A DNA stretch of 46,500 nucleotides from an uncultured Hyphomicrobiales bacterium (GTDB taxonomy: Bacteria > Pseudomonadota > Alphaproteobacteria > UBA7879): positions 1 to 46,500 of the forward strand of contig CAYOCE010000004.1 of the NCBI GenBank assembly GCA_964402405.1, given 5' to 3'. The number at the start of each line of letters is the position of its first letter. Position 1 is the first letter of the stretch. Below, in pieces: positions 3,623 through 35,300 of this stretch. The position numbers were made by a program, and so were the translations under genes. The notes under the pieces were generated by a model. That model had not been told where the DNA came from. It worked only from the letters and a program-made list of their open reading frames with translations, and searched no databases.

Positions 3623-3703
3623 TTTTTGTTCCTAATAATTGTAGGGAGTTAATTATAACAACCTGAGTTCTGGATAAGAATAGCGTAAACATTAAAAATC
3701 GAC

Positions 3704-3864
3704 GTCATCCTGAGCCGTGAGCGCAGCGAGCGTGCGTAAGGATCCAAGACACATGAGAGGGCGTAGCCCTCACTTTATAAAGAAAAAACAAAGTGAAGGC
3801 TGCGCCTTCCCATTTGTGCTGGACCCGCAGGCAGCGCTCGCTAAAGCTCGCTGCTCAGGATGAC
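3704..3864. repeat. GC-rich palindromic MITE-like element, copy 1 (full length)
   Basis: The termini gtcatcctgagc (3704-3715) and gctcaggatgac (3853-3864) are exact reverse complements. Inner arms also pair (agggcgtagccctcacttt / aaagtgaaggctgcgccttcc). It shares modules (gtgagcgNagcgagcg, ggatcc, cccatttgtgctgg) with the copies at 5743-5948 and 13408-13530. Confidence 0.75.
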
Positions 3865-3974
3865 ATAAAAAGTAGTCATAAAGCGATTCTTGTCCAAAAC
3901 TCAGGCCATAATAAAGGGTTTTCCCATTTTCAGCTAGGAAGATCAAGGAAAATTTTGAAAGGATCTAGACAAGT

Positions 3975-5742: not shown

Positions 5743-5948
5743 GTCATCCCGGACGAAGCGCAGGGCCCCGAAGGGGCACCAGCAAAGATCCGGGCCCCAG
5801 GGATTATGGGAGGACGACTCGCCACGGCGAAGCCTTTGGCGTAGCCGGGAGTCCTCACCTTATTTTTCTTTATAGGGTGATGGCTTACGCCATCCCATTT
5901 GTGCTGGGTCCCAGGTCTGCGTTCGCAAGCTCACTTGCCTGGGATGAC
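5743..5948. repeat. GC-rich palindromic MITE-like element, copy 2 (full length)
   Basis: Termini are gtcatcccgg (5743-5752) and cctgggatgac (5938-5948). It contains gattatgggaggacgactcgccacg and cctcacYttatttttctttat, shared with copy 3, and cccatttgtgctgg, shared with copy 1. It sits between nrdR and glyA. Confidence 0.75.
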
Positions 5949-9356: not shown

Positions 9357-10322
9357 TTATTCTTTTGCTGCTAACGTCAGCTGTTTAATTTCATCCTCAG
9401 GCAGCCCTGTAATTTGAGAAATAAAGGATAAAGCAGCATTTTGATTTAACATCTTCCGAGCAATATTTCTTTTGGCCTCTAGCATGCCTTTTTCAAGTCC
9501 TAACTTCTCTCCCTCGGTCAACCCTTCAGCTTTTCCTTCAGCTTTTCCCTCAGCTTTTCCCTCAGCTAATCCTGCTGCTAACCCTTCGGCCATACCTTCT
9601 TCATAGGCCTCTTCTTTGATGGCCCTATTAGACCAGTTCTTTTTGTCCACCGAGTCATAAGCATAAATATCTGCCTCCTTCCAATCATATTTATCCAACT
9701 CGTCATACGCTCGTTCGATAATTAAATCTGATCCTGCGATTTCCTTCATATCCTGTTTACTGGTTTCGGTAGCGTTCTTTAGGAAATAACACCACTTCTG
9801 CACCATCGTTTTTAAGTGCTCTTTTTCTACATTAAACTTGGGGAGTTCAATAAAAGAAAAAGAAAAATCTTTCAGGTCTCTCTCCAACGTTTTATGATCC
9901 AAAATCACATGATGGGACAAATAATCTTTCTTTTCGGGGAACAAAACAAAATCTGTGATAGCTAGGAAAATAACTGCCTTGAGATCTTTGTATGCAACGT
10001 TTTTAGTACGCTGTTCAATGTAGGCTTTCGCCGCATAATACAGGGCACGTTTTTCGAAACCACGTTCTCTTACAACCTGCATTTCTACAATGAAGCGCTC
10101 TCCATTCTCATCCTTGCAAAGAATATCAACGCTACTCATGCGTTGACCAACGGTTTCGGGCGTTTGAAAGGTGCTTAAAAAGGTGACCTCCTGAATAGGA
10201 TTAGTGGTTCTCGCAAAAATATCGTTCAAAAAATGAATGAGGATATCTTTGTTGCGTTCTGTCCCAAAGATCTTTTTAAAAGCCAAATCATTTTTAGGGT
10301 CTAAAAATCGTGCCATTGTCAT
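9357..10322 (-). CDS. Rpn/YhgA-family recombination-promoting nuclease (PD-(D/E)XK, 'putative transposase')
   Basis: 321 aa. N-terminal FLDPKNDLAFKKIFG...VDILCKD...FIVEMQ nuclease core. An (A/T)EG(K/L) low-complexity linker is followed by a C-terminal ...ISQITGLPEDEIKQL helix region typical of the family. Paralogue of the gene at 1-727. Confidence 0.85.
   Translation of the reverse strand: MTMARFLDPKNDLAFKKIFGTERNKDILIHFLNDIFARTTNPIQEVTFLSTFQTPETVGQRMSSVDILCKDENGERFIVEMQVVRERGFEKRALYYAAKAYIEQRTKNVAYKDLKAVIFLAITDFVLFPEKKDYLSHHVILDHKTLERDLKDFSFSFIELPKFNVEKEHLKTMVQKWCYFLKNATETSKQDMKEIAGSDLIIERAYDELDKYDWKEADIYAYDSVDKKNWSNRAIKEEAYEEGMAEGLAAGLAEGKAEGKAEGKAEGLTEGEKLGLEKGMLEAKRNIARKMLNQNAALSFISQITGLPEDEIKQLTLAAKE
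9526..9567. repeat. 12-bp in-frame tandem repeat (3.5 units) inside the Rpn gene
   Basis: tcagcttttccY occurs at 9526, 9538 and 9550, with a half unit at 9562. It encodes (AEGK)n on the minus strand. Confidence 0.85.
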
Positions 10323-13407: not shown

Positions 13408-13530
13408 CATCATCCCGGCTCGTGAGCGAAGCGAGCGAGAGCCGGGATCCAGAGATTATGGGAGGACGACTCGCCACGACAAAACCATCAGGCGTAGGTG
13501 GAAGTCCTCACTTTATTTTTCTTTATGCGG
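13408..13530. repeat. GC-rich palindromic MITE-like element, copy 3 (left half only)
   Basis: atcatcccggctcgtgagcgaagcgagcgagagccgggatcc...gattatgggaggacgactcgccacg...cctcactttatttttctttat matches the left arms of copies 1 and 2. The right arm, including cccatttgtgctgg, is missing. Confidence 0.7.
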
Positions 13531-15150: not shown

Positions 15151-15221
15151 CAACTCCAGAAAATAATCATACATCTGACCTGCAGCCTTTTGGTCATTTG
15201 CACAATTATTTTCTGGAGTTG
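15151..15221. promoter_or_regulatory. perfect 17-bp inverted repeat with 37-nt spacer, 20 nt upstream of the STAND gene
   Basis: caactccagaaaataat (15151-15167) is the exact reverse complement of attattttctggagttg (15205-15221). It is either a protein-binding site pair or a 5'-UTR stem-loop. Confidence 0.5.
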
Positions 15222-15240: not shown

Positions 15241-18200
15241 TTGAGTGAAATGGAGGATATCATGGATAATAAAAAGAATGGTAACCAAGATAGAATTGAT
15301 ATAAGTCACTTAAAAATAATAAATGGCGTTAAATTTACGAACCGAGAGATAGATATCATTTCTTGTATGTTGAGAGGGCAAAGAGCAAAAGTGATTGCTT
15401 CCTGTCTTTCTATTTCTTCAAGAACAGTTGATACCCATATATGTAATATTCTTACAAAATTGAATTGCACCTCCCGAGAAGGCATTCTTGATTTTATAGA
15501 AAAATCTGGGAAATTTTCCCTATTACAAAAACATTATCATAATTTATTAATGGGGGAGTCTAACGAAACCCATGGGCTTATAAAATCAACTATTTCTGAA
15601 ATCCAAAAATCCAAAAAGTTTTTTGACTCCCTTTCTTTATTTTTTAAAAACAAAAAATCTTGGGCTGTCTTAAGTGTACCCATGGTGATTTTTTTCTTTT
15701 CCATATGGGCATTCTCATCCAAAGAACCTAATGGAAGCGAATCTATCCGATTTGATTTACGTATCCCAACAGAAGCTGTTTTCTTAAGACGTTCTAGCCT
15801 GATTAAAAATATCAACGAAAAATTAAAAGGAAAGGAAGATATTGAAACAGTTGCTCTTGTGGGCGTTGTTGGAATTGGGGGTGTTGGAAAAACAACCCTT
15901 GCTCGAGAATTTGGGCATTCCTATCGTGGACCAGTTGTTTGGGAGATTAATGCAGAAACAAAAAATTCTCTCACAACGTCATTTTTGGATCTGGCAGGTA
16001 GCCTCGCTCAAACTCCAGATAAAAAAACTGATCTAGAATTTATTAAGGCTATTCAAAACTCAGAGGAAAAAGAAAAGCAATTATTGATTTTGGTTCAACG
16101 ATGGTTGAGAGAAAAGCCAAACTGGCTTCTCATCTATGATAACGTTCCTACAGTATCGGAAATTAAAAACTATCTTGCCGATGACCCTAAAATTTGGGGA
16201 AAGGGGAAGGTAATCATTACGACGAGAGATAGCAACATTAAAAACGCAAACTGCATTAAACCAGAAAATGTCATTCAACTTGAGGAGCTGAGTGAAGAAG
16301 AAAGGCTAACTCTCTTTAGTAAAATTCTTTATAATTGTGAACCTCATAAACTTACAAAAACTCAAAAAGAAGAAGCTATTATATTTCTAAAAAATATCCC
16401 TTCATTTCCTTTGGATGTGTCTATTACGGCCTATTATATAAAAAACTCTCAGATTACGTTTGATCAGTACCTTGAGAGAATGAGATCATTTAACAAAAAC
16501 TTTGAAGAAGTACAAGAACTTTTCTTAAAAGAGATGACCGATTATACAAAAACTCGGTATGAAATTACAACTCTCTCTTTCAAGAAATTAATTGAAGTGA
16601 ATCCATATTTTAAGGAACTTCTTTTGTTTATATGTCTGTTGGATTCTCAAAATATTCCAAAAAATTTATTAGAATTCTATAAAGACAAAGAAACTGTTGA
16701 TGCTTTCCTTTATCATCTAAGGCAATACTCCTTTATTACTAAAGAATCTCCCTATTTAGAGGATTCAAAAACTCTAACAACTTTCTCCATGCATAGGAGC
16801 ACGCAGTCCATAGGATTAGCGTTTCTTATAAATTTACTAAGTAAGAAAGAAAAGGAAGAATTTCTGATAAACATTATCGATTCTCTTCAAGAGTTTCATA
16901 GTATTTACCTGAAAAAGAGTTACCCTATCAGCATTTCTCTCCTTCCTCATTTGGAATGCTATCTACAAAAAGTAGAAGACATCAAAGTGTCAAAAAAAAT
17001 AAGCTCAATATATAATGCGAAACTGCTTCTAATGTTGGGAAACACCCAATATCAATGTATAGGAAATGTTGGATCAGCAAAAAAATATTTTACTCAAATC
17101 TACGAAAATAAAAATTTTAGATCACACCTTTCTAGGTTTGACCTTGCCACATTGTCAAAAAATTTAGGAACAGTTAGTGTGGATTTGAACGCGCCAGAGG
17201 AAGCTATCGAATATTGTAAGGAAAGCCTTAAACTTTGTGATAATAAAATACCTGATTTTGAGGTTTTAAAAATAACGAATTTTATTATTCTAAGCTTTGC
17301 CTACAATACTAAGAATGATTTTAATAATTCCAAAAAATCCCTTGATGCAGCTTTAGAGTTACTTTCAAAGCTAGATCATCCCCTGAAGTTGGAACTAGAA
17401 TCAATGGTATACGGTGTTATCGCTTTTTCTCGTGCTGCAGGGTTCATGGGGAAATATAAAAAAGGGGAGGCGGAGGAATATGCAAAAAAATCTTTGAATG
17501 TGTTAAATGCTTCCCATCTTGCACTTGAAAAAACAAAAAATGTAGATTCTAAGCTCGCTTGTCAGATAATAAGGAACGCATTATGGTTTGGACGGTCTTA
17601 TAATGCAATTGGGAACTATGAGGAAGCTTTAGAGCTTGGGTTTAATGAAGCTCAGCATATTATTGATCGTCTATCAATAAATGATTGCCCTCATGAATTT
17701 TTGTTGCCGTATAATTCTTCTGTTTTAAAAGCGTATATATTGTGCGGAAAAGGAGAAGCTTTTCTACGAAAGGGTCTTTTGAAAGAAGCTGAGGACTTCC
17801 TTACACAAGCGGCGTTAATAGAGGACAAATACTTAGGAGGGACATTTAGAAATCTTGTTATCCGGCCCCTAAGAGCAGAAACCAGAATAAGGTTGAAAAA
17901 TTTTGAGGGAGCATACGAAGATTGCAATATGATGTTTAATACAAAATTAAAGGCAGGAAGCAGTTACTATAAAGCATTAAAATTAACCTCTTTCTATCAC
18001 GGCGCCATCATCAAATATAAACAAAACGATCTTAAAAAATCAGCCGAGCATTTTGCTGACTTTTTCAAACAAATGAAGGATTTCTGCAAAGGGTTTTTGG
18101 AAGAGAAAGAATATAAAGACTTAGAATCCAAAGGAGCATTTGCCTCTGTTGATCTAAGCAAAACCTCCTCTAAAAATGATATTAGGCAATACCTAAACCG

Positions 18201-18273
18201 CAGCACGCAAATTTTCTCGGCCATCTACGGACCAGACCATCCTTTTGTAAGCGATTATGTGATGAAAAACTAA
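15241..18273 (+). CDS. STAND NTPase: N-terminal LuxR/GerE HTH, predicted TM helix, NB-ARC ATPase, C-terminal TPR-like region
   Basis: HTH: TNREIDIISCMLRGQRAKVIASCLSISSRTVDTHICNILTKLNCTSREG (aa ~33-80). Hydrophobic helix: WAVLSVPMVIFFFSIWAF (nt 15661-15714). NB-ARC: P-loop GIGGVGKTTLA (nt 15871-), Walker B LLIYDNV, RNBS-B-like GKVIITTRD, GLPL-like SFPLDV. The C-terminal ~450 aa are helical-repeat or TPR-like. The start is ambiguous: TTG 15241, ATG 15250 or ATG 15262. Confidence 0.85.
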   Translation: MSEMEDIMDNKKNGNQDRIDISHLKIINGVKFTNREIDIISCMLRGQRAKVIASCLSISSRTVDTHICNILTKLNCTSREGILDFIEKSGKFSLLQKHYHNLLMGESNETHGLIKSTISEIQKSKKFFDSLSLFFKNKKSWAVLSVPMVIFFFSIWAFSSKEPNGSESIRFDLRIPTEAVFLRRSSLIKNINEKLKGKEDIETVALVGVVGIGGVGKTTLAREFGHSYRGPVVWEINAETKNSLTTSFLDLAGSLAQTPDKKTDLEFIKAIQNSEEKEKQLLILVQRWLREKPNWLLIYDNVPTVSEIKNYLADDPKIWGKGKVIITTRDSNIKNANCIKPENVIQLEELSEEERLTLFSKILYNCEPHKLTKTQKEEAIIFLKNIPSFPLDVSITAYYIKNSQITFDQYLERMRSFNKNFEEVQELFLKEMTDYTKTRYEITTLSFKKLIEVNPYFKELLLFICLLDSQNIPKNLLEFYKDKETVDAFLYHLRQYSFITKESPYLEDSKTLTTFSMHRSTQSIGLAFLINLLSKKEKEEFLINIIDSLQEFHSIYLKKSYPISISLLPHLECYLQKVEDIKVSKKISSIYNAKLLLMLGNTQYQCIGNVGSAKKYFTQIYENKNFRSHLSRFDLATLSKNLGTVSVDLNAPEEAIEYCKESLKLCDNKIPDFEVLKITNFIILSFAYNTKNDFNNSKKSLDAALELLSKLDHPLKLELESMVYGVIAFSRAAGFMGKYKKGEAEEYAKKSLNVLNASHLALEKTKNVDSKLACQIIRNALWFGRSYNAIGNYEEALELGFNEAQHIIDRLSINDCPHEFLLPYNSSVLKAYILCGKGEAFLRKGLLKEAEDFLTQAALIEDKYLGGTFRNLVIRPLRAETRIRLKNFEGAYEDCNMMFNTKLKAGSSYYKALKLTSFYHGAIIKYKQNDLKKSAEHFADFFKQMKDFCKGFLEEKEYKDLESKGAFASVDLSKTSSKNDIRQYLNRSTQIFSAIYGPDHPFVSDYVMKN

Positions 18274-27502: not shown

Positions 27503-28693
27503 TTAAGAAAGGTTGGAGATTACCTCTAAGAAGTCCGTAATGCCGATCGCTTGGGTATCATGGGACAAGGGAAATTGTTCTTGTCCGCCATAAACCACAA
27601 ACTTTTTGGTTGCTCCAATATCTTCGGCTGCTTTGTGAAAGCCTGCTGAAACTTTCGGCGCAACGGATCGTTTGATTTCCACAGCCCATGTTTCCTGGCG
27701 AGGCCCTTCTAGAACAAGATCTATTTCTGTCTGAGAAGCTGTACGATAATAACTGTATCGCCATTTATCAGAAAGGGAATTGATAATGTTCTCAATCAAA
27801 AAACCTTCCCAACTAGCCCCACAGTGAGGATGACCCAAAAGATCATCAAAAGAAGATAAGTTAAGCAATCTATGAAGGAGCCCTGTATCTCGTAAATATA
27901 TTTTAGGAGATTTTACCAACCGTTTTTTTGTATTGCCGGACCAGGGTTGAATTTGGCGTACCATATAGAAATCAGTGAGTATATCCAGATAGTTTCTAAT
28001 GGTTGTATGGTTGGATTCTAAGCTTTTTCCAATTCCCGATAGATTAATTTGTTGGCCATGGTAATGGGCCAGCATTTGCCAAAATCGCTTTATCTGAGAT
28101 GCAGCAACCTTGGGCCCCATCAAAGGAATATCCCTTTCTACATAAGTTGCGATAAAATCCCCTCGCCAAAGCCAGCTTTCTTCATCATTTGGGGCTAAAT
28201 AACTATTGGGAAATCCCCCTCGAAACCAAAGCTTATCAGGATTAAACCCCAATCCCTCTGTATGGCGGATTTCTTTGATCAAAAAAGAAGTTAGTTCAAG
28301 ATATCTGATGCGCCCTGCAAGTGTTTCGGAAGAATGTTGGAGCAAATCACGAGAAGCAGATCCAAGCAACAAAAACTGTCCGGATGTCTCTCCTTGCCTT
28401 TTGCGATAATCAACTAATCCTCGGAGCACCCGAAATAGATCGGGTTTGCGTTGAACTTCATCAATAATTAATAGGGTATCGGAAAATTGCCTTAAATATG
28501 TTTCTGGGTCCTCTAATCGCGCAAGATCTGAATCAAGCTCCAAATCCATGTAATGAATTTTTTTTCCAATTTTTTTATGTACCAAGTCAAGAGCAAGAGT
28601 AGTCTTTCCCACTTGTCTTGGCCCTAAAAGAGCAACAACTGGCACCGCATTAATGGCCCCTATTAAATTTTTTTCAAGAGTTCGTATAATCAT
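27503..28693 (-). CDS. AAA-family ATPase fused to a C-terminal PD-(D/E)XK-like domain (AAA_14/DUF4143-type architecture)
   Basis: Walker A GPRQVGKTT and Walker B LLIIDEVQ. The C-terminal motif TEIDLVLEG...WAVEIKRS (nt 27669-27730) fits D-x(n)-E-x-K. Confidence 0.82.
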   Translation of the reverse strand: MIIRTLEKNLIGAINAVPVVALLGPRQVGKTTLALDLVHKKIGKKIHYMDLELDSDLARLEDPETYLRQFSDTLLIIDEVQRKPDLFRVLRGLVDYRKRQGETSGQFLLLGSASRDLLQHSSETLAGRIRYLELTSFLIKEIRHTEGLGFNPDKLWFRGGFPNSYLAPNDEESWLWRGDFIATYVERDIPLMGPKVAASQIKRFWQMLAHYHGQQINLSGIGKSLESNHTTIRNYLDILTDFYMVRQIQPWSGNTKKRLVKSPKIYLRDTGLLHRLLNLSSFDDLLGHPHCGASWEGFLIENIINSLSDKWRYSYYRTASQTEIDLVLEGPRQETWAVEIKRSVAPKVSAGFHKAAEDIGATKKFVVYGGQEQFPLSHDTQAIGITDFLEVISNLS

Positions 28694-28739
28694 GAACCCA
28701 GAATACCACTAAAAGTTTCAATTTGCAAGATTTTAGGTG

Positions 28740-28780
28740 AAAAAACATGCAATTTGAAAGTTTGAGTTTCAATTTGCATG
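28740..28780 (-). terminator. putative intrinsic terminator (minus strand)
   Basis: On the minus strand, CATGCAAATTGAAA-ctcaaac-TTTCAAATTGCATG (13 of 14 bp paired; plus-strand 28746-28780) is followed directly by TTTTTT (plus-strand A-run 28740-28745). The stem is AT-rich. Confidence 0.5.
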
Positions 28781-28795
28781 CTTTTGATCGTTGAA

Positions 28796-28838
28796 TTATT
28801 TCTGTAGCAACTCCATCAGCTCCCGCCATTCCCGAGGG
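28796..28838 (-). repeat. 43-bp duplicate of the thyX 3' end (last 13 codons plus stop)
   Basis: ttatttctgtagcaactccatcagctcccgccattcccgaggg matches 29751-29793 at 39 of 43 positions. The minus strand reads [13 protein letters not shown], against [13 protein letters not shown] in thyX. Confidence 0.8.
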
Positions 28839-28852
28839 AAAGAACAAGTTGA

Positions 28853-29563
28853 TTATCTTTCTTCCTCATCATCTCCACTTTCTGCATCTACATAGTCTTC
28901 TAATGCAGGCTCTTCCCTCAATTCTTCTTTTAATCTTAAATTTTCAACCTGCGCCTTTCGAAGGTCGCGCTTTAGTTGTTCCCTCTGTTTCCGAGCTTTT
29001 TCTAGCTCGTTGAATAATTGTAATTGTAGTTCTCTATTACGTGCTTCAACACGCCTTACCTCTTCCGATAATCGCTGTACTTCCACTGTTTCTTGTGGGA
29101 TATTTATATCTAGAATCGCCATTGTTGCTTGGCTAATATCTTCTTTCAACCTTCCAGCAAGCTCTCTTCCTCCATCTCTGAATTGGGTTATTGCTATCTC
29201 TACCCCATGACGAACTGATTCGCTTTGTATTCCTCTCGTTTGATCTAGCGAATGAGAAAAAACTTGCTCCTCTTCTATATGAGATTGGTATTGGCATACT
29301 GACGCGGCAATTTGTATCAGCTGTGCATGAGCATTTTCTGTTATTTCACACATCGCACCAGCTATCCTTTCAAACTCCCTTTCTGCCTCTTCTATAATTC
29401 TTCTAGCAATATCATCGTCAGTTGGCACTGGTACAGCTATCCTTCTCTCATTGAGAGCATCCTCATCTTCTGCATGGGACGCAAATATTTTTTCACTCCC
29501 TAATATAAAGATCATAATGAAAGTACTGGCTAATAGATTTAAAAATTTCTTACGTTTTAACAT
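28853..29563 (-). CDS. secreted acidic coiled-coil protein (hypothetical)
   Basis: The ATG at 29563 is preceded by AAGGAG; the track ORF begins at GTG 29587. N-terminal signal or anchor MLKRKKFLNLLASTFIMIFILG. The C-terminal heptad-like, charged region is VEVQRLSEEVRRVEARNRELQLQLFNELEKARKQREQLKRDLRKAQVENLRLKEEL, ending in an acidic tail. Confidence 0.65.
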   Translation of the reverse strand: MLKRKKFLNLLASTFIMIFILGSEKIFASHAEDEDALNERRIAVPVPTDDDIARRIIEEAEREFERIAGAMCEITENAHAQLIQIAASVCQYQSHIEEEQVFSHSLDQTRGIQSESVRHGVEIAITQFRDGGRELAGRLKEDISQATMAILDINIPQETVEVQRLSEEVRRVEARNRELQLQLFNELEKARKQREQLKRDLRKAQVENLRLKEELREEPALEDYVDAESGDDEEER

Positions 29564-29750
29564 GGATGTCTCCTTTAAAAAACTCACAGAATAGTTAATA
29601 CGTATATAAGTTTAGTTATTTATTATTTCAAGTGGAATAAATAGAATATTTTAATTTAAAAATATAATTGAAGAGAATTAAAAAATAAATAGATTGATGG
29701 GTTCTTTAGCTAAATGAGTGTAGCAAAAGTGATTGAAAGAATAATGTTTT

Positions 29751-30683
29751 TTATTTCTCCAGCAACTCCATTAACTCCCGCCATTCCCGAGGGCCAATGC
29801 CTGAGGATGCTTGATCAACGGTTTCTCCTGCAATCATACGTTTGACAACAGCCATGCCTTTTTGGGACAGCAATGTTGCATTCATGCGGTAATCCAGAAA
29901 TGCTTGATGCGTAAAGGGCACCCACTTTTTCAAAACCTCGATCATCGCGTGGGCATACACCTGAATTTCCCACTGAGCATGGGAATCCCCTCGTAGGGAA
30001 AGAAAATGCATCAAATTATGCAAATCAATTTTCCAATACCATTGGGTGTAGTAATTCAGAGATAGATTCATGCGAGCCAGTTCCCGCGCCAATCCATCCC
30101 GATTGGGATCTTTGGGATTGCCAGCATCATCTTCGTTTAACAAATCCTGATAGGTACTATAGGCACTTTCAGATTCTTGCCGCATCAAATCCAGCACCCG
30201 TTGGGCATCTGCGCCTGATAAAACCTGGCCACGCCCCTGATGATTGATGGTGGATTGGGCCGCTAAATTTTCAGGCGCAGGAATGTAAAATTCTTTATCC
30301 AAAATCGAATACCTCGCCGAATATTCATTAACACTAGCCGTACGACTACGAATCCATTGACGTGCCACAAAAATGGGGAGCTTCACATGAAACTTAATCT
30401 CACACATTTCAAAGGGGGTACTATGCCTGTGACGCATTAGATAATTGATCAAGCCCTGATCCTCGCTAACTTTTTTGGTACCCTTGCCATAGGAAACCCG
30501 CGCTGCCTGTACAATAGCCGAATCATCCCCCATGTAATCAATCACCCGGATAAATCCATGATCTAAAATAGGAATGGGATCATATAAAATTTCCTCCAGC
30601 GCCGGCACCGTTGCCCGTTTCGTTTGATGGGAGGTGGCCTTTAATTCCTGCAGTTCAGCATTATTCGTTTGCGTATATTCCAT
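29751..30683 (-). CDS. thyX: FAD-dependent thymidylate synthase ThyX
   Basis: 310 aa with the ThyX signature RHRHSTPFE and a downstream SARY motif. Confidence 0.95.
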
Positions 30684-30721: not shown

Positions 30722-31288
30722 TTATTTGAGGGAGGTTGCTAGGGGAATTTTTTTAATGAGGCTATAAAAAAAATAAATCGTTAATCCTATCAAAATTGAA
30801 AATTCAAAATATATATAATTAAGCAGATCTGCGGAATGGGGATTTTCAAAATGTTCTCGGATATCCATGTATAAAGTTAGAAGAAAGGCATTGGCAATAA
30901 AGAGGATAAAAAAAGAAGAAACAGCCCCACTGATATCAGGTTTTATATTTTTTAGATTATTTTTATTTGTATAATTTTTCCAAAGAAAGAAGAGTCCAAC
31001 CAAGGCATTAAATCCACCCCAAATAGCTAATTCCCATCCCCACATCCAAGGTTTTATAACCAAAATTCCAGAAATCACAGAAAAAAAATCCAGAAGAGTA
31101 CTAGATGTCCAATCCATAGGATTACTCAAGTCAGGCCATAATAAGATAATATAGAGTACTAGAAGTTTAAAAAGACAAAATACTGGGACTAACCAACAAG
31201 AAAACTTGTAAAATCGTTTTGCAATAAACCAAAAAATGCCAAAAACTATGATTTCCAAGAGTGTCTTTAGAAGTTGGAAAAATTTCAT
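30722..31288 (-). CDS. hypothetical polytopic membrane protein
   Basis: 188 aa with about five hydrophobic helices. No family recognised. It lies 10 nt downstream of the metallopeptidase gene on the same strand. Confidence 0.55.
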
Positions 31289-32409: not shown

Positions 32410-33144
32410 TTACGAAGTCGTAGCTTGACTCTGATTGGAGGATGTCCCAGCAGGAGCACTAGCAGACGCACTGGTTCCTGAATTAACAGCAGCCCCAGTG
32501 GTGCCAGTGGCACCCGATACCGCGCTCTGAGAAGTATCCAATACGGCATTCTGAGAAGTCGTAGCTTGACTCTGATTGGAGGATGTCCCCGCAGGAGCAC
32601 TAGCAGACGCACTGGTTCCTGAATTAATAGCTGATGTAAATAAGTCGGCAAGACCACTTTGTATGTCACTCAGGGTTGCTTGAGTTTGATCTACAGCAGA
32701 CCCAGCCGTATTTGATGCTGTCTGTTGAAATGACGCAAGTAACTCCTGAAGCGACCACGTTAGACGACTTGTCAACCATGTGTTTAGCTGATTTGTCATA
32801 TCTGTAAACCAGATTAGGGCCAACTTGTCTATCGCCTTAAAATCGATAGACTGTCCGCTGGTTTCAATAAGCTTAGCAACATCCGCAACACATCCCGCAA
32901 CTGGATCAGCTACAGTAGTTGGATTAGATTCATAGGCATCCTTAGCAGTCTGAGATATGAATTTATTGCAACATCCCTGTACATTGTATCCTTGATATAA
33001 CCCACAGCATAGAGGAACCCCTTGCGGAGATCCTATAATAGGATTCATACAGCTTTGCACCTGTTGATCAGGATCCTCTGCTGTCACATTGATTGCAAAT
33101 GAAAGAATAAAGTAAAGTGTAAATAGTATTTTTTTATTTTTCAT
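32410..33144 (-). CDS. secreted protein with Cys-patterned N-domain and Ser/Thr/Ala/Gln-rich repeat tail (hypothetical)
   Basis: The likely start is the internal ATG at 33144 (MKNKKILFTLYFILSFAINVTA signal peptide); the track ORF extends to 33204 and would overlap recG. The mature N-terminus has C-X13-CC-X10-CC-X25-C. The C-terminus repeats NSGTSASASAPAGTSSNQSQATTS twice. Confidence 0.6.
   Translation of the reverse strand: MKNKKILFTLYFILSFAINVTAEDPDQQVQSCMNPIIGSPQGVPLCCGLYQGYNVQGCCNKFISQTAKDAYESNPTTVADPVAGCVADVAKLIETSGQSIDFKAIDKLALIWFTDMTNQLNTWLTSRLTWSLQELLASFQQTASNTAGSAVDQTQATLSDIQSGLADLFTSAINSGTSASASAPAGTSSNQSQATTSQNAVLDTSQSAVSGATGTTGAAVNSGTSASASAPAGTSSNQSQATTS
32414..32631. repeat. two 77-bp direct repeats (75/77 identical) offset by 141 bp, in frame
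   Basis: Unit gaagtcgtagcttgactctgattggaggatgtcccNgcaggagcactagcagacgcactggttcctgaattaaNagc occurs at 32414-32490 and 32555-32631. Confidence 0.9.
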
Positions 33145-33200
33145 GAAGACCACCCAATTCTTGTTTATATTATTAATTGTATTATATTTTTTACTGTATT

Positions 33201-35300
33201 TCAACCCGATTTCAAATAAACTTTAACATCTTCATGTTGAAAAAGACTTAGGAGCAATCGAAGGGCTATACCCCTCGTAGACTCTAAATAGGGATCCAAC
33301 TTTAGGATTTCTGTAGCCTCTTGATGGGCTTTTTTGATTAAGGCATGGTGCGTATAAAGATCCACCAATGAAAAATGGGGCATGCCGCTTTGACGTGTTC
33401 CAAAAAGCTCTCCACTCCCTCGGATTTTTAAATCTTCTTCAGCGATGATAAAGCCATCTTCAGTTTCTCGGATGGTTTCTAGTCTTCTTTTGGCAGCCCA
33501 ACTAAGGTTTTTATCATACAAAAATAAACAAAAGGACTGATCGGCCCCTCGCCCAGTTCGTCCCCGAAGTTGATGAAGCTGGGCAAGTCCAAAACGCTCC
33601 GCATGTTCAATGATCATCAACGTGGCATCGTGCACATCTACCCCGACTTCAATCACGGTTGTTGCCACCAGAATGTCAATATCTCCCTTGATAAAGGCCA
33701 ACATCACCGCATCTTTGTCTTGAGGAATCATTTTGCCGTGGAGCATCCCAACCTTGTCCCCAAAGCGTTTTTGTAGCTCGTGGAATCGTTCAGTGACATG
33801 TCCCAAATCCAAGGCCTCGGATTCTTCAATCAAGGGGCATACCCAGTATATTTTTTGGCCTTTAGATCGAATGCGATCAAGGGACGCATACACATCATCG
33901 ACACGATCCAAGGAAAGGGTACGACTGATAATAGGGGTGCGGTTCTTGGGTTTTTCTGTTAGGACAGAAATATCTAACTCGCCATAAAGGGTCAGCATCA
34001 GGGTCCTCGGGATGGGGGTGGCGCTCATGGCCAGCATATTTGTGTGGGTTGTTTTATTAATTAACTTTAGCCGCTGCTGCACCCCAAAGCGGTGCTGTTC
34101 ATCAATCACCACCAATCCCAGACTATGGAAGATTACAGGATCCTCAAGCAACGCATGGGTACCAACGAGGATATGAACTTTGCCATCTTTTAAATTCTCT
34201 AAAATTTCGCGGCGGTCTTTAGCCGATGTACTGCTCGTTAAACATTCAAGGCGAATATCCATGCCTGATAAATAGGTTGAGAGCGTCTTAAAATGCTGTC
34301 CTGCCAAAATTTCCGTGGGAACCAAAAGGGCGGCTTGAGTCCCAGATTCTACAGCCACCAACATGGCAAGCAGCGCCACAATGGTTTTGCCACTTCCCAC
34401 ATCCCCCAATAGCAGACGCATCATCTTTTGAGGGGAAGCTAGATCCTTGGTGATTTCCTCTAAAACATGTATTTGGGAGTCAGTTAAAGAAAAAGGTAGT
34501 TTTTCCAATAGCGGTTTAGTGAGTTTTCCAGAAGGCGTCAGCACAATCCCTGCCTCGCGATGATGGTATTGCTTGTGGAGCCCCATCATTAACTGATGGG
34601 CCAGCAATTCATCATAGGCAAGCCGTTTGCGGGCACGGGTATCCGGCAATAAATCCCCATCCTTTTTGGGATGGTGAACTGTTAATAAAGCGTCCTTAAG
34701 CGATGGCCAGTCCTTGGGATCTGCAATCCATTCAGGCAAGTCCGGCAGGCTTTTCAATGCCTCCCCAATAAGATGTCGTAATGTTTTTTGCCCCAGACCT
34801 ACGGTGGAAGGATAAATGGGATGTACGCCTGTCCACTCAGGGATATCAGAAAGAGGCCCCATATGATCGGGGTGGGTTATTTGACGAATGCCATGATATA
34901 CATCCAGGAGACCACTTACCATGCGCCATTGGTCCTTGGGGAGAGCACTTTTTAGATATTTCTCATTCCCTCTGAAAAAGATGAGCTTTAGAACCCCCTC
35001 TGCATCATAACACATGATGGAATAAGGGGCGCCTTCTTTCTGGGGGGGGGTATGAAGACCCACCATCACCTTCAGGGTCACGAGTTGATGAACGGGGGCT
35101 TTTGATATGGATTCTGCCGCCACACGATTTTGGAGTTTATGAGGAAAGTGCCAGCATAAGGAAAGAGGAGTTTTCAAGCCCAACTTTGCTAGTTTCTTCA
35201 ACGTTTCTGGCCCAACCCCCTTCATCAAACCCAAAGGTTTGAACAGATCATATAATATTTCTGGGCGCAAAAAGGGTTGGTTTTTTAAAGGTTCCATCAT
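33201..35300 (-). CDS. recG: ATP-dependent DNA helicase RecG
   Basis: Helicase motifs GDVGSGKT (I), VIDEQHRFG (II), MSATPIPRT (III), QLRGRTGRG (VI), plus the N-terminal wedge domain. The track ORF begins at GTG 35339; ATG 35300 or 35297 (MMEPLKNQPFLRP) is preferred. Confidence 0.93.
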   Translation of the reverse strand: MMEPLKNQPFLRPEILYDLFKPLGLMKGVGPETLKKLAKLGLKTPLSLCWHFPHKLQNRVAAESISKAPVHQLVTLKVMVGLHTPPQKEGAPYSIMCYDAEGVLKLIFFRGNEKYLKSALPKDQWRMVSGLLDVYHGIRQITHPDHMGPLSDIPEWTGVHPIYPSTVGLGQKTLRHLIGEALKSLPDLPEWIADPKDWPSLKDALLTVHHPKKDGDLLPDTRARKRLAYDELLAHQLMMGLHKQYHHREAGIVLTPSGKLTKPLLEKLPFSLTDSQIHVLEEITKDLASPQKMMRLLLGDVGSGKTIVALLAMLVAVESGTQAALLVPTEILAGQHFKTLSTYLSGMDIRLECLTSSTSAKDRREILENLKDGKVHILVGTHALLEDPVIFHSLGLVVIDEQHRFGVQQRLKLINKTTHTNMLAMSATPIPRTLMLTLYGELDISVLTEKPKNRTPIISRTLSLDRVDDVYASLDRIRSKGQKIYWVCPLIEESEALDLGHVTERFHELQKRFGDKVGMLHGKMIPQDKDAVMLAFIKGDIDILVATTVIEVGVDVHDATLMIIEHAERFGLAQLHQLRGRTGRGADQSFCLFLYDKNLSWAAKRRLETIRETEDGFIIAEEDLKIRGSGELFGTRQSGMPHFSLVDLYTHHALIKKAHQEATEILKLDPYLESTRGIALRLLLSLFQHEDVKVYLKSG

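Follow-up and report, generated by a model that had tools for sequence, protein, structure and literature searches.

How does the 3′ end of an essential gene come to stand twice in a chromosome, once where it completes the gene and once on the far side of another gene? The question is raised by thyX, which encodes flavin-dependent thymidylate synthase, in a stretch of 46,500 nucleotides (nt) from an uncultured alphaproteobacterium with 41.6% GC (contig CAYOCE010000004.1 of assembly GCA_964402405.1, positions 1 to 46,500; hereafter the window). The last 43 nt of thyX recur at 28796-28838, beyond an orphan gene, and we tentatively read this second copy, at somewhat less than an even chance, as the scar of a homology-anchored, partly illegitimate recombination between related, diverged chromosomes or fragments. 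On balance, homology-driven recombination is more likely here than a mechanism that uses attachment (att) sites and an integrase, and the locus has the appearance of a fixed scar left by gene gain rather than of an element with demonstrable mobility.

A displaced thyX 3′ end beyond a single-gene insertion

The repeat pair, the segment between its copies (the cassette) and thyX itself comprise the following features.

29751..30683, minus strand: thyX, flavin-dependent thymidylate synthase, 310 aa, intact (Pfam Thy1, E = 6.8e-58)
29751..29793, minus strand: right repeat copy, the functional final 13 codons and stop of thyX
29775..29793, minus strand: 19-nt identical stretch on the thyX side, CCCTCGGGAATGGCGGGAG, with two sites in the window
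29564..29750, minus strand: AT-rich spacer between the thyX stop and the orphan open reading frame (ORF), 187 nt, 21.9% GC
28853..29563, minus strand: orphan gene for a 236-aa 'coiled-coil protein' with a signal-like hydrophobic N-terminal segment, then long helices and an acidic tail
28839..28852, minus strand: 14-nt linker between the orphan stop and the relic, which stays in the frame of the orphan ORF
28796..28838, minus strand: left repeat copy, a displaced non-functional relic of the thyX 3′ end, with the identical 19-nt core at 28820-28838

Direct reading and repeat finding place the two 43-mers in direct orientation at a spacing of 955, with identity at 39/43 positions, and a self-BLAST of the window returns them as the sole gene-tail duplicate across its 46.5 kb (E = 1e-9), which confirms the duplication described in the original prediction. 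The initial 19 nt of both copies in thyX sense, CCCTCGGGAATGGCGGGAG, are perfectly matched; with up to three mismatches allowed, this sequence has two sites in the window, both in the 43-mers, where 100 shuffles give an expectation of 0. One border of the repeat lies exactly at the stop codon and the other is sharp, between 28838 and 28839. The closest sequence to the relic anywhere is the window's own thyX tail, and the PREWRELME tail of thyX is kept in relatives, which identifies the left copy as a true relic of the gene's 3′ end, as had been claimed. It had also been stated that three of the four nucleotide differences are synonymous, and this holds: three are synonymous and one is non-synonymous (E/Q), giving proportions of synonymous and non-synonymous differences (pS and pN) of 0.36 and 0.033, on 4 differences only.

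The arrangement is found in independent data. A Logan contig from a separate assembly is identical over 1.3 kb of the region, and six further runs, from wastewater and sludge metagenomes of six further studies (2019-2025), yield contigs or unitigs of read length that cover the cassette with 0-1 differences. The relic-side (left) junction is crossed by X2-X5 and X8, and X6-X7 lie inside the cassette; the thyX-side (right) junction is crossed only in X2 and X5 besides X1. Every sample holding the locus has the same arrangement. Since independent contigs are identical and unitigs span the junctions in several runs, an assembly artefact is ruled out. The source, a wastewater bacterium that is covered best in X1 (about 11x), is probably host-associated.

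Between the copies lie only the spacer and one ORF, so that the relic does flank a one-gene insertion, as originally described. The spacer holds a Shine-Dalgarno sequence, AAGGAG, at 29570-29575, and a promoter-like TTGAAA-17-TATATA (29626-29631 / 29603-29608) picked out by eye at a site that the strict promoter scan did not flag. Folding of the spacer yields no terminator hairpin after the thyX stop, and the spacer has no homology to the DNA downstream of thyX in relatives, so it does not reveal the native side. The orphan protein, which is probably secreted, has no homologue in 5.8e9 proteins, none by HMMER in 1.84e9 cluster representatives, and no Pfam or PADLOC match; its AlphaFold2 model is all-helical, with a predicted local distance difference test score (pLDDT) of 69, and has no fold match in the PDB. 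GC content at third codon positions (GC3) is 0.274 in the orphan gene, 0.27-0.34 in the window's other lineage-specific orphans and 0.42-0.50 in core genes. The spacing of 955 is near the gene length of 933, and a decayed tandem copy of the whole of thyX was considered and rejected, because the interior of the cassette resembles thyX neither in nucleotide nor in protein sequence.

Two small features adjoin the repeats. One TAA and five codons part the orphan ORF from the in-frame relic (28796-28855), an agreement of frame with a chance of 1 in 3; read-through, or a recent stop mutation, would put a ThyX-derived tail on the orphan protein. The 10-nt sequence TTRTTCTTTC, in thyX sense, occurs at 28838-28847, directly before the relic, and at 29735-29744, 6 nt after the thyX stop. 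In a circle formed by excision, were there one, the two copies of this sequence would stand on either side of the 43-mer; they may be a product of chance in T-rich DNA.

A parallel relic from a diverged thyX allele

A scan for a second copy of the locus's own thyX, in whole or part, covered 161 thyX loci with a complete gene end, over a median of 6 kb downstream. A single lineage, represented by L010 and L006, has such a duplicate, and none of the 159 other loci has one within ~6 kb.

L010 5935-8733; L006 2583-5189: parallel thyX-relic locus, with a fast-evolving orphan on the opposite strand to thyX

In L010, an alphaproteobacterial metagenome-assembled genome (MAG) with 42% GC, thyX is followed by an opposite-strand 512-aa orphan without a Pfam match and then by a relic that corresponds to the last 189 nt of thyX, identical at 168/189 positions and with its frame intact. 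As in the window, the stop codon is the limit of homology on one side; on the other, upstream of the relic, degenerate sequence resembling thyX carries on. L006, a Paracaedibacteraceae MAG related to L010, has this orphan too, at 60% identity and broken into two parts, and a 37-44-nt mid-gene thyX fragment (WIRHRIANVNEY*) that is 95% identical to the thyX of L010 and 86% identical to its own. The genes after the relic differ, a trypsin/PDZ protease in L010 and an M16 peptidase in L006, so that the relic coincides with a break in synteny.

The L010 relic differs from the functional tail by 15 synonymous and 4 non-synonymous changes over 62 codons (pS 0.385, pN 0.027, pN/pS 0.07). Neutral decay of a copy made in place predicts ~60% non-synonymous changes; 4/19 are seen, and an in-place copy is thereby rejected for L010. 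On these comparisons, the L010/L006 relics derive from a diverged thyX allele, were once long, and flank different cargo without an integrase. The window's pS and pN are almost equal to the L010 values, on four sites only. The earlier suggestion that one of the copies originated in another allele of thyX finds strong support in the parallel L010 case (15 vs 4), and the window, with its 4 differences, is compatible with such an origin for its own relic.

These counts bear directly on the possibility that the window's relic arose in place, by a staggered break or replication template switch that copied 43 nt and captured 0.9 kb of filler, after which the working copy changed synonymously and the relic freely. 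The relic is indeed much nearer to the window's own thyX tail than to the tails of L082 and L083, the two loci with the nearest ThyX proteins, and by outgroup comparison the relic has acquired the E to Q change and one synonymous change, and thyX at least one synonymous change. However, a source for the 0.9 kb is not known and the segment has no transposon-like ends; 43 nt far exceeds usual target duplications, the cassette interior has no trace of thyX, and the L010 relic has kept its frame with far fewer non-synonymous changes than in-place decay predicts. We regard duplication in place as quite unlikely.

Relic-bearing loci are AT-rich: 3 of 17 loci with less than 45% GC carry a relic (16 of the 162 thyX loci fetched, plus the window), compared with 0 of 146 GC-richer loci. 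Two independent events are seen, one in the window and one in L006/L010. It would be very improbable, in our estimate, that they mark a recurrent landing site, at which the thyX 3′ end of Paracaedibacteraceae-type AT-rich, orphan-rich genomes receives single-gene cassettes of lineage-specific secreted proteins through an unrecognised recombination system, encoded elsewhere in the genome, that supplies the replacement thyX tail and leaves the old tail behind.

Turnover of the DNA downstream of thyX

Among GTDB species representatives the nearest ThyX proteins are 68-74% identical, and come from genomes that include a Paracaedibacteraceae MAG, 'Ca. Paracaedibacter symbiosus', Stellaceae and Dongia; the nearest in any collection searched are at 88% (L082) and 79% (L083). 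In L082, thyX is convergent with recG. The order in L083 is ygjP-thyX-greA-elm1-(207 aa)-hpf, and that in the window is ygjP-(188-aa orphan)-thyX-orphan-relic-ATPase-(196 aa)-hpf, where the 196-aa and 207-aa proteins are 69% identical. The content downstream of thyX is different in every relative, and ygjP, the 196-aa gene and hpf are syntenic; as read from gene order, the flanks have kept their synteny and the DNA after thyX has turned over.

Neither the cassette nor the relic is in L082 or L083. Comparison with relatives had been proposed as a way to find empty sites or larger islands with an integrase, and it gives neither: L082 and L083 lack the cassette, but they are not true empty sites, because their contexts differ through rearrangement. 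On the other side of thyX, a 188-aa membrane-like orphan lies between ygjP and thyX (30722-31288, minus strand; 30.9% GC, GC3 0.275, no Pfam match). As ygjP and thyX are adjacent in L083, the window has a lineage-specific AT-rich insertion on either side of thyX, and of these two only the downstream one left a duplication.

Search for mobile-element machinery

The original prediction took the repeats for the attL and attR of an integration whose integrase had been lost, or for the product of another site-specific mechanism acting at the thyX end. In its fullest form this explanation makes the thyX 3′ end the attB of an element resembling a cis-mobilizable element (CIME), which would have brought its own replacement tail and then lost its integrase and other cargo by internal deletions. 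Several properties of the locus agree with it. The insert lies between direct repeats, of which one completes thyX. The homology spans a perfect 19-nt block up to the exact stop codon, and all 4 differences, most of them synonymous, lie 3′ of this block (chance ~0.09). The insert is tidy, with a single self-contained cargo gene that has its own ribosome-binding site, and the TTRTTCTTTC copies, after thyX and before the relic, would flank the core in a circle; in AT-rich DNA, this T-rich 10-mer may have arisen by chance. Streptococci commonly carry decayed att-flanked elements of 130 bp to 13 kb that have no recombination genes (PMC7563491), and an attachment site within a gene is known from icd of E. 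coli, where phage 21 and e14 insert (PMC12803456).

Searches for the machinery itself came back negative. No recombinase or integrase domain is present in the 46.5-kb window, no integrase family is among those hit by at least 3 of the 139 genes immediately downstream of thyX in relatives, and phmmer with one integrase seed gave no match in the flanks of 162 thyX loci, which is a weak test. IMG/VR does not contain the 19-mer, and searches of phage and plasmid collections with the cassette returned no match. No contig in the 8 runs has a joint that skips the 955 bases, again a weak test, as it covers assembled contigs only. A literature search for thyX as an attachment site found nothing relevant. 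The insert consists of one orphan ORF without relatives; no cognate integrase-bearing element is known at thyX here or in relatives, and neither related elements nor attP-like copies of the core were found elsewhere. A search for further copies of the repeat had been proposed; its 19-nt core has the two sites in the window and none in IMG/VR. The site-specific mechanism is left without positive evidence. The 159 other thyX loci without a tail duplicate, and the parallel case, add to this: in L010 and L006 the relics vary in length (189 nt in one, a mid-gene fragment in the other), which is easier to reconcile with truncation of a longer gene copy than with an att core of fixed extent, and the cargo differs from that of the window and lies in the opposite orientation. 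We treat a decayed CIME-like element as the main rival explanation, a live one, on the unlikely side.

Three other classes of element were rejected. Transposons and miniature inverted-repeat transposable elements (MITEs) leave target-site duplications of 2-14 bp, for which a 43-nt repeat is too long, and the cassette has neither terminal inverted repeats nor a transposase. An integron cassette is excluded by the lack of intI and attC; the only nearby palindrome belongs to the ATPase upstream region described below, and the ORF is provided with a spacer and a ribosome-binding site of its own. A tRNA- or tmRNA-linked island is excluded in that the window holds no tRNA, tmRNA or Rfam family. Elsewhere in the window, two gene copies with ~70% nucleotide identity (9357-10322, minus strand, and 110-729) belong to a PD-(D/E)XK 'transposase' family (PDDEXK_2, Rpn/YhgA-like recombination-promoting nuclease), which may give rise to rearrangements of this genome independently of RecA.

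A proposed homology-anchored recombination scar

Homology-anchored recombination, the reading that we prefer, would start from two parents, one with the orphan gene directly after thyX and the other with the ATPase unit directly after thyX. An exchange anchored by pairing in or around thyX would be closed by one illegitimate joint, between 28838 and 28839, in a single event by homology-facilitated illegitimate recombination (HFIR) or a Campbell-type crossover. The 3′ end of a second, 5′-truncated thyX copy, stranded downstream of the insert, would be the tail of the other parent, and may have been longer at birth and then deleted down. One intact thyX is kept because the complete tail arrives with the upstream parent, homology stops at the stop codon because the parents differ in everything after thyX, and the order of intact gene, insert and 5′-truncated copy is what recombination using the 3′ part of a gene yields. 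With one novel joint, this account would explain the allele-type divergence, the lack of an integrase and the variable relic length in the parallel case. We infer the route of recombination and the present-day immobility of the locus from the arrangement as it stands. HFIR that leaves strings of displaced 3′ regions has been documented at type VI secretion system (T6SS) and Rhs loci (PMC5361080; PMC3240628).

A number of observations weigh against this account. Neither parental arrangement was found (thyX followed by the orphan but no relic; thyX followed by the ATPase but no orphan), and the closest ThyX in all collections is only 88% identical. Forty-three nt, of which 19 are perfectly matched, would be short for RecA-dependent pairing were the crossover inside them, and the position of all 4 differences 3′ of the block at its 5′ edge is the pattern that an att core would predict. 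Those 4 differences are too few for the window alone to prove separate alleles, and the outgroup polarity also fits divergence in place. Both inserts, in the window and in L010/L006, are neat units of one gene each, an outcome not always to be expected from random fragment ends.

The preferred account differs only in the birth length of the second copy from xenologous displacement, in which a full foreign thyX came with or beside the orphan and one of the two copies decayed to its last 43 nt. The pieces in L006 and L010, mid-gene in one and the last 189 nt with degenerate sequence upstream in the other, indicate that the relic there was once at least ~600 nt, and AT-rich, orphan-rich genomes of this type probably shed non-functional DNA by deletion, which counts in favour of a complete second gene. 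In the window, however, nothing past the 43 nt is detectable, and the 5′ edge of the relic is sharp, just 14 nt from a functional gene. We consider the remnant of a complete second thyX unlikely.

The palindrome belongs to a neighbouring ATPase unit

Beyond the relic lie two further features.

28741..28785, minus strand: palindrome/hairpin followed by a T-run (fold), beginning 10 nt past the relic stop; the conserved block is about 28716-28785
27503..28693, minus strand: AAA_14/DUF4143 ATPase (Pfam), PADLOC candidate defence family PDC-S01 (E = 4.5e-89)

A hairpin and T-run do follow the relic, as folding confirms; the proposal that they are the original thyX terminator fails. The palindrome is conserved upstream of ATPase homologues in unrelated genomes: the motif TTGAAA-N6-8-TTTCAA occurs within ~130 nt upstream of the ATPase at 11/11 homologue loci (L084-L094, which represent three distinct homologues and genomic contexts) and at 0/162 other loci. 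The closest ATPase homologue (76%) lies between unrelated genes in an unrelated genome with 51% GC, and has upstream of it the same palindrome with a third half-site at the -35 position; this upstream region and that of the window are 83% identical along 71 nt, counted from 10 nt past the relic stop. An ancestral thyX terminator is excluded by this match and by the motif counts. The palindrome often stands in 2-3 copies, one at the -35 position, and looks like an operator, possibly autoregulatory; perhaps it acts as an upstream insulator or terminator that travels with the gene. In the window, the hairpin probably stops the thyX and orphan transcripts, and the orphan gene would be co-transcribed with thyX up to the palindrome.

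The ATPase gene is horizontally mobile, because proteins of 70-76% identity are spread over Bacteroidota, Gammaproteobacteria and others. As its unit begins 10 nt past the relic, the relic is wedged between two accessory units, each of which abuts a thyX stop. Moving with a widespread candidate defence ATPase, the palindrome may be the more useful finding in practice.

Other features of the window

GC-rich intergenic repeats occur at 3662-3905, 5786-5948 and 13438-13526 and are built of two modules. Module A (5786-5873 and 13438-13526) is 84% identical between its copies; module B lies at 5877-5948 and 3793-3864, the latter with an inverted copy at ~3662-3790 that makes a 247-nt palindrome. 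These repeats resemble repetitive extragenic palindromic (REP) or MITE elements, and match no credible Rfam family (one sub-threshold match to a miRNA model). A class of orphan and accessory genes with low GC3 (0.27-0.34) comprises orf588, the coiled-coil gene, orf188, a histidine kinase, a LuxR-NB-ARC-TPR protein and the ATPase. A 264-aa secreted-looking orphan (32410-33204, minus strand) overlaps the end of recG by 4 nt and contains an internal repeat, 32414-32490 / 32555-32631, 97% identical, 141-nt spaced and Ser/Thr/Ala-rich. An imperfect palindrome of 71 nt (15151-15221) immediately precedes a gene for a 1010-aa LuxR-HTH / NB-ARC / TPR protein of STAND type (15241-18273, plus strand).

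Significance

The scar in the window is a new instance of an already known, ordinary kind of recombination event. The relic is a datable footprint of the gain of a gene for a lineage-specific, probably secreted protein beside an essential gene, and the window together with L010/L006 shows that partial duplicates of housekeeping-gene ends can mark gene gain without visible mobile-element machinery, a caution for island-finding tools that treat every 3′-end duplication as an att site. Should the events turn out to be site-specific, thyX would join the known attachment sites as a new one, with unusually small cassettes; otherwise, homology-anchored illegitimate recombination would have in this locus a clean example from nature. 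Among the by-products of the analysis, the most useful are the recurrence in AT-rich relatives and the palindrome linked to the ATPase.

Comparison with known systems

Streptococcal integrative and conjugative elements and integrative and mobilizable elements use the 3′ ends of fda, rpsI and rpmG and bring replacement tails. CIMEs and decayed elements at streptococcal fda, rpsI, rpmG and rplL (PMC7563491) are like the window in having a short insert, cargo without recombination genes, and direct repeats that include the working 3′ end of a housekeeping gene. In contrast to them, the window has no known cognate integrase element at thyX, no tandem partner and no related copies, and the repeat of the parallel case is variable and much longer. 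Phage 21 and e14 at icd supply a substitute tail with mostly synonymous differences and leave the original tail as a downstream relic, and they resemble the thyX case in that the target is an essential metabolic gene, entered within its 3′ part. They are, however, prophages with an integrase beside the att site, whereas the insert in the window is 0.9 kb with a single orphan gene.

The orphaned 3′ regions of T6SS effector and Rhs genes (PMC5361080; PMC3240628) share with the window a conserved upstream anchor, one illegitimate joint, older 3′ pieces pushed downstream and the absence of an integrase. Those loci differ in being toxin/immunity arrays under diversifying selection with repeated displacements, whereas thyX is a housekeeping gene and the event a single one. 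Campbell-type crossover of a circle with the 3′ part of a gene yields an intact gene, the insert and a 5′-truncated copy. Such integration needs a circular intermediate and enough homology, of which the window retains 43 nt, and the order of its products matches that of the window exactly.

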